The notes under the pieces: model-generated
What the model was told of the DNA's origin: nothing
Seen by the model: the letters and a program-made list of their open reading frames with translations, nothing else
Database searches by the model: none
Shown: piece after piece, positions 8,356-8,898 of the stretch
Layout of the letters: every line of letters begins with the position of its first letter
How positions within the stretch are numbered: the stretch's first letter is position 1
Position numbers and translations under genes: made by a program
DNA from: Escherichia coli
GTDB lineage: Bacteria; Pseudomonadota; Gammaproteobacteria; Enterobacterales; Enterobacteriaceae
Assembly (NCBI RefSeq): GCF_046105845.1
Contig: NZ_CP151004.1
Length of the DNA stretch: 64,000 nucleotides
Reading direction: 5' to 3' (one strand)

Positions 8356-8898
8356 GTAAAAATCCTTATTGCCTCCGACCAGCGATCTATGCCGGTAGAG
8401 TTGTCCATTGTATTATTAGTGATCTATGTTGCTTTACATTAATGACAGTGATGTGTGTCGATTAAATATTGTTTTAAACATTCATCATAAAAATGTATCA
8501 TTCGTTTCAAAAGATGTCTGCGTTTGTATGAATATGTTATTTTTCGTGGATTCTAATGATGATTATTAATAAATGTCAAATATGAAAGAAACCATATCTG
8601 GAAAAAATCTTACTGATAATTGATTGTATGAATATGATGATTAAAATTTCACAATTAAATCCGAAAAAAAGAGACGTAAATGCTTGTTAATTAACAAATG
8701 ATATCTTCTATATATTTTTATTATTTATAGGTGGCTATTTCGGTAAAAATGCATTTTCAGAATATCAACCAGCGGTAAATCGAAGTAAAGGGAGTGAATT
8801 GTTTGGTAATTAGGCGAGTAGACAGGAGAGTCCCCGCATTGACCAGCTAAGGCAAGCCAGATGCGGGTTGATACGATCGAACCAGTCGTCTGAGGGGC
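8356..8898. promoter_or_regulatory. AT-rich upstream region of the lipoprotein-adhesin operon
   Basis: Visibly AT-rich 0.5-kb non-coding region with A/T tracts; contains the 13-bp direct repeat ttgtatgaatatg at 8524-8536 and 8624-8636. Confidence 0.4.

Follow-up and report, generated by a model that had tools for sequence, protein, structure and literature searches.

The AT-rich promoter region of the Escherichia coli sadB-ehaG adhesin operon and a 13-bp direct repeat that is probably incidental to it

The 543-bp region at positions 8356 to 8898 of a 64,000-nucleotide stretch of E. coli DNA, the whole of which we refer to as the window, is the AT-rich promoter and control region of the E. coli sadB-ehaG adhesin operon. 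We consider it probable that this region holds the sadB-ehaG promoter and leader within AT-rich DNA silenced in the manner of H-NS targets, and that the 13-bp direct repeat to which a sequence-only reading had drawn attention is incidental. We propose that transcription would initiate near position 8543 from a conserved minus-strand sigma-70-type promoter and would produce a leader of approximately 187 nt with an AAGGA ribosome-binding site; that the promoter would be set in about 380 bp of DNA with 23-26% G+C, with a bend predicted roughly 130 bp ahead of it; that H-NS, by coating or bridging such DNA, would keep the horizontally variable adhesin genes silent; and that the products of the operon, when made, would be a lipoprotein export helper and a trimeric autotransporter adhesin (TAA). 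Observations that run counter to this explanation include the 0.8% local probability of the repeat and the operator-like way in which its copies bracket the promoter. The probable promoter position and the leader of about 187 nt have little significance beyond annotation of the adhesin operon.

That the region lies upstream of an operon encoding a lipoprotein and a trimeric autotransporter, as the sequence-only reading had it, was borne out by the minus-strand gene order, the domains of the adhesin and the homology of the lipoprotein to SadB (Table 1). The order of the locus is mtlR-yibT-yibL, the 543-bp gap, the sadB-like gene, the TAA gene and lldP, with the flanking mtlR and yibL genes and the adhesin genes all on the minus strand. 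The 227-aa lipoprotein matched the sequence of the Salmonella SadB crystal structure (PDB 4C47) with an E value of 2.4e-67, and the 1808-aa adhesin was identical to E. coli WP_409023686.1, the orthologous gene being annotated ehaG. The window locus resembles ehaG/upaG of E. coli and sadBA of Salmonella both in this combination of a 4C47 homologue with a TAA having ESPR, YadA head, stalk and anchor domains and in its chromosomal position, with the mtl operon on one side and the lld operon on the other. The sadBA operon has been placed between those two operons, and its deletion in K-12 described (Grin et al., PMC3953254); according to the same work, the conditions for native sadBA expression are unknown, and no sadBA expression was seen under laboratory conditions. 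The window strain differs from other ehaG/upaG loci in its private haplotype and its longer TAA variant, as carriers of an identical SadB elsewhere have a TAA of 1588-1616 aa vs 1808 aa in the window strain. Exact repeats with a period of 42 nt occur at positions 5435-5547 and 5836-5907, in the YadA head/stalk repeat region of the adhesin gene; these probably account for the adhesin lengths of 1588, 1616 and 1808 aa found with the same SadB.

Table 1. Coordinates of genes and sequence features in and around the yibL-sadB intergenic region (window positions; minus and plus signs before small numbers in the last column are relative to the transcription start that was placed from the -10 hexamer)
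Feature	Position	Strand	Remarks
EhaG/UpaG/SadA-type trimeric autotransporter adhesin gene, 1808 aa	2202..7628	-	43 nt downstream of sadB; ESPR, YadA_head, YadA_stalk, YadA_anchor
sadB-type inner-membrane lipoprotein gene, 227 aa	7672..8355	-	PDB 4C47 match; PGAP 'SadB/YajI family lipoprotein' or DUF3251
yibL-sadB intergenic region	8356..8898	-	control region of the sadB-ehaG module; shares its presence or absence with the adhesin genes
Putative 5' leader, ~187 nt	8356..8543	-	transcription start placed from the -10; Shine-Dalgarno AAGGA at 8367-8363, 7 nt before ATG
Repeat copy 1, TTGTATGAATATG	8524..8536	+	~+8..+20 in the putative leader; G8536 private to the window strain
Putative -10 hexamer TAGAAT	8550..8555	-	TA(G/A)(A/C)AT in 11/11 sequences
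Putative -35 hexamer TTGACA	8574..8579	-	TTTGAC invariant; TTGACA in 10/11 (E. albertii TTGACT)
Repeat copy 2, TTGTATGAATATG	8624..8636	+	~-93..-81; polymorphic TTGTATG, TTTTGTG or TTTTATG in E. coli
Predicted intrinsically curved tract	8640..8700	.	peak near 8671 (~-128); includes A7 tract 8664-8670
Invariant block ATTCTGAAAA	8753..8762	-	~-215; invariant or nearly so in 11/11 sequences
G+C-rich hairpin without U-run	8833..8867	-	31 nt past the yibL stop codon; centroid structure
yibL, upstream neighbour	8899..9261	-	stop codon is the islet boundary
mtlR	9766-10353	-	flanking gene

At the yibL end of the region, the hairpin listed in Table 1 is a probable 3' end structure of yibL, and a different hairpin takes its place in other allele classes; apart from this one hairpin, folding of the yibL 3' region gave nothing unusual (z -1.08). 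An Rfam scan of positions 7500-9800 at a permissive threshold returned only sub-threshold eukaryotic noise. The small open reading frames within the region were only those of 47, 23 and 20 aa, and a scan of the 47-aa frame gave no Pfam match.

The distribution of the region among strains showed to which neighbour it belongs. Of the 5,426 complete E. coli genomes, 2,268, O157:H7 among them, had a match to it at 94-97% identity, and in 2,260 genomes the identity was 95-97% across all 543 bp; sadB, the intergenic region and yibL taken together had 97% DNA identity to annotated E. coli ehaG loci. Approximately 3,150 E. coli genomes are homologous to the window only past an abrupt break at base 8898, immediately next to the yibL stop codon; genomes that do not have the window-type region carry either mutually unalignable versions of the intergenic region and sadB (as in ST131, MS15236 and SCU-105) or the K-12 deletion. 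The K-12 yibL-lldP spacer is the ehaG-lldP spacer of the window, the whole module having been lost from the yibL stop codon onward. The break in homology at 8898, together with the K-12 deletion, indicates that the entire 543 bp belongs to the adhesin module and not to yibL. The sadB-ehaG genes act, along with the 543 bp upstream of them, like a single cassette that can be replaced as a whole, with boundaries at the yibL stop codon (8898/8899) and the ehaG stop codon (2202); the whole region, in other words, travels with the adhesin genes as a single exchangeable module. Between allele classes SadB is only about 65% identical, and the G+C content of the region is 32-36% in every allele. Relative to 18 other ehaG-type alleles the window strain has a haplotype with about eight private SNPs, among them the change that makes the 13-mer complete. 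The locus also shows signs of decay in some strains, sadB being frameshifted in strain E2855 and interrupted by an internal stop codon in THO-010, and in strain STB20-1 an IS1 element is inserted into the intergenic region.

The position of the promoter came from an alignment, in the direction toward sadB, of 11 sequences: the window, two E. coli alleles close to it, three E. coli classes that diverge from it and five relatives (E. fergusonii, E. albertii, E. marmotae, Pseudocitrobacter and one labelled Salmonella). Mean column identity was 60%, mostly saturated, and only two blocks were strongly conserved. One of these contains the sequence TTGACA-18-TAGAAT (8579-8550, minus strand), which agrees with the sigma-70 consensus at 11 of 12 positions, the best match in the region, and has a spacer of 18 nt in 10 of the 11 sequences and 17 nt in the other. 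We regard it as the probable sadB-ehaG promoter, of the sigma-70 type; judging from its -10 hexamer, transcription would start near 8543. The leader length implied for other alleles is approximately 155-185 nt (two alleles, counted by hand from coordinates). For the putative leader of the window there was no stable or significant fold (z -0.41) and no Rfam match.

The second conserved block, ATTCTGAAAA, lies far upstream and reads A(A/T)TC(T/C)GAAAA across the alignment, in surroundings that are themselves unalignable. It is a candidate regulator site, and a better candidate than the 13-bp repeat. The TCTGA within it resembles the -10 element of sigma-E promoters; a sigma-E reading was rejected when a consistent GGAACTT -35 element was not found upstream in the 11-sequence alignment. 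Useful by-products of the analysis are this conserved distal block, the probable position of the promoter and the yibL stop codon as the edge of the module. A perfect 12-bp palindrome, TGTTAATTAACA, is located between the distal block and the promoter at positions 8685-8696 (about -145) and was found only in ehaG-type alleles; it fits the ArcA half-site consensus WGTTAATTAW, and the neighbouring lldP is ArcA-regulated.

The strong AT-richness that had been described upstream of the lipoprotein-adhesin operon was confirmed. The G+C content was 33.3% over the 543-bp region and 25.7% over positions 8400-8780, and the 300 bp starting at 8430 had 23.3% G+C vs 50.8%, the lowest G+C stretch in the 64-kb window. 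The A/T tracts that had also been pointed to were no more frequent than this composition predicts, there being 10 tracts of at least 4 nt relative to 9.0 expected (P 0.41). AA/TT dinucleotides showed a weak periodicity of 10.25 bp (P about 0.03 after correction). Curvature was predicted with a wedge model and Bolshoy-Trifonov parameters (Bolshoy et al. 1991), and the values that follow are indicative only. The predicted curvature reached 29 degrees at position 8671, within the top 0.3% of window positions, and for the region as a whole it was at the 92nd percentile of equal-sized windows.

The sequence-only reading had offered phased curvature as one possible role for the repeat; the two copies would then be intrinsic-bend elements that shape the promoter for binding of nucleoid proteins. 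A region predicted to be more curved than 92% of its equals, with a weak AA/TT periodicity, speaks for such a role; however, the predicted curvature at the copies themselves (8520-8540 and 8620-8640) was 10.5-11.2 degrees as compared to a window median of 9.5, and the peak at 8671 falls outside both. Values so near the median mean that the repeats are not predicted bend elements; moreover, the 13-mer contains no A-tract, and 100 bp is a half-integral number of helical turns. We therefore find phased curvature elements unsupported and a role of this kind exceedingly unlikely.

In two papers, both citing Totsika et al. 2012, H-NS is described as repressing autotransporter genes of uropathogenic E. 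coli, UpaG included (PMC5012682 and PMC3966885, one of them naming UpaG). In Salmonella, expression of STM3690 (sadB) was 4.2-fold lower in a fur mutant in which hns rose 3.1-fold, and the gene is described there as dependent on Fur, with a Fur site predicted for it, and also appears in a list of Fnr-regulated genes (PMC3212961). The drop in a mutant with raised hns is compatible with silencing by H-NS but no proof of it. The window has a Fur-box-like sequence (13 of 19 positions) at 8549-8573, over the promoter spacer and the -10 hexamer, with P 0.29 relative to composition; we rejected it as a Fur box, since it is not above composition and is missing from other allele classes.

All of the following fit silencing by H-NS: the base composition, the bend predicted upstream, the richness of the leader in A and T, the variable presence of the locus and the lack of laboratory expression. 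Very low G+C relative to the genome and predicted curvature upstream are features that the region has in common with H-NS-silenced adhesin promoters and related elements (upaC, upaH, F9 fimbriae, proU-type elements), as are AT-richness that continues into the leader, presence in some strains and not in others, poor expression in the laboratory and, for UpaG, reported repression by H-NS. It differs from them in that the high-affinity motif is not enriched: the 10-mer consensus for H-NS, TCGATAAATT, had two hits, each with two mismatches (8458 and 8707; P 0.41 relative to shuffled sequence), and H-NS binding here is a prediction. We infer that H-NS occupies the AT-rich tract of the window. The reading of the region as a xenogeneically silenced AT-rich promoter is thus supported, and was already known from the literature; the low G+C, the predicted curved tract upstream, the variable islet and the reported H-NS repression speak for it.

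We turn now to the repeat itself. The sequence TTGTATGAATATG occurs exactly where it had been described and with the 100-bp spacing, start to start, that had been described, leaving an interval of 87 bp between the copies. When the 543 bp were shuffled 5,000 times with dinucleotide content preserved, an exact direct repeat of at least 13 nt arose in 0.76% of the shuffles. When the entire 64-kb window was block-shuffled with its composition preserved, at least one exact repeat of at least 13 nt within 200 bp was present in 21% of shuffles; these shuffles are relevant because the repeat could have been chosen from anywhere in the window. Leaving aside the repeats within the adhesin coding sequence, the real window has two more repeats of this kind. 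The excess over chance expectation is therefore marginal. There was no similarity between the copies beyond the 13 nt, and no third copy with two or fewer mismatches in the 64-kb window.

Comparison with other alleles showed that the exact pair is confined to the window strain. Copy 1 reads TTGTATGAATATA in all 18 other ehaG-type alleles, and a 41-nt probe centred on it found no seed in the 5,426 complete E. coli genomes, G8536 being absent from them. A window-like copy 2 is present in 1,405 of the 2,268 carriers of the region (about 62%) and lacking in about 38%. In the other sampled ehaG-type alleles the two copies match each other at 10-12 of 13 positions, the most divergent allele having 11; their spacing is 99 bp in O157:H7 SS17, E2855 and THO-010 and 100 bp in the other sampled ehaG-type alleles. 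For eight divergent alleles or species that have this promoter too, the segment from -130 to -45 was compared with that from +1 to +60; the closest pair of 13-mers agreed at 9-10 of 13 positions, which is what shuffled sequences give (P 0.6-1.0).

The arrangement of the copies relative to the promoter is one reason to think of operators. Copy 2 lies upstream and copy 1 downstream of the conserved promoter, and sites at -93 to -81 and +8 to +20 could bind a specific regulator that represses by looping in the way of GalR, LldR and NagC. In addition, the local chance probability is 0.8%, a 12/13 repeat exists in many ehaG-type alleles, and copy 1 overlaps (C)TACAAAC, a sequence that is semi-conserved in the 11-sequence alignment. 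Known looping or paired-site systems (GalR OE/OI, LldR O1/O2 at lldP, and the pap GATC sites 102 bp apart) have the same spacing of about 100 bp and the same bracketing of the promoter. In contrast to these, the sites in the window are not conserved, their spacing is variable and out of phase, and they have neither dyad symmetry nor GATC. Only one lineage has the exact pair; about 38% of genomes of the same class do not have the window-like copy 2, the sampled alternatives ending in TTTTGTG or TTTTATG and matching copy 1 at 10-11 of 13 positions; and the eight divergent alleles have no such repeat. With 10.5 bp to the turn, a spacing of 99-100 bp corresponds to 9.4-9.5 helical turns, and at 100 bp, or 9.5 turns, the two sites would be on opposite faces of the helix. 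The lack of a third copy within 64 kb also argues against a regulator of this sort, as does the absence of any convincing match to the transcription factor consensus sequences considered, the Fur-like matches being no better than composition predicts. The LldR operator, AATTGGCCCTACCAATT, was located in the ehaG-lldP spacer and is unrelated to the 13-bp repeat. We also rejected phase variation through Dam methylation, the GATC sites near 8384 and 8421 being polymorphic and outside the repeat. Taking these results together, we find the proposal of paired regulator sites unsupported and looping operators very unlikely.

A narrower version of the operator reading is that the 12-13-bp repeats of ehaG-type alleles, at about -87 and +14, are the operators of a lineage-restricted regulator that clamps the sadB-ehaG promoter, with the pair in the window strain being tighter for its perfect match. 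The 12/13 repeat in about 62% of genomes of the allele class could conceivably have a lineage-restricted function; we judge a regulator of the kind just described to be highly improbable.

The repeat might alternatively be the footprint of a past event, either a target-site duplication around an insertion or what is left of a tandem duplication of 100 bp. Its defined length, its direct orientation and the 87-bp interval are in favour of such a footprint. However, the interval holds the -35 and -10 hexamers conserved in all of the alleles and species and hence is not an insertion; there is no similarity outside the 13 nt; and other sampled alleles of the class, as given above, have copies that resemble each other less. 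Among 19 ehaG-type alleles we saw none that lacks precisely positions 8537-8636 and has a single 13-mer. The conserved promoter in the interval and the lack of similarity past 13 nt rule out both origins, and we give this explanation almost no chance.

We return, then, to the explanation that we prefer, a sadB-ehaG promoter and leader in H-NS-type silenced DNA with a repeat of no consequence. An ordinary resemblance of 10-12 of 13 positions, of the sort found in low-complexity AT-rich DNA, would have become a match of 13 of 13 through point mutations in one lineage. The exact 13-bp repeat would then be a quirk of one strain, incidental and without a function of its own, as the comparison of alleles suggests. 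Natural alleles with 13, 12, 11 and 10 of 13 matches and with spacings of 99 or 100 bp constitute a ready-made functional test.

Two further paired elements were noted elsewhere in the window. A second exact direct repeat of a 13-mer, ATAGGCAAACCGA, occurs at positions 36796 and 36978, a spacing of 182 bp. At positions 22441-22523, between a yiaY-like L-threonine dehydrogenase gene and an open reading frame for a 431-aa Fic-domain protein, there are two copies, 50 bp apart, of a palindrome of about 30 bp (ACTATCTCAA...TTTTTTGAGATAG); this pair coincides with a predicted curvature peak and looks like a genuine paired operator.
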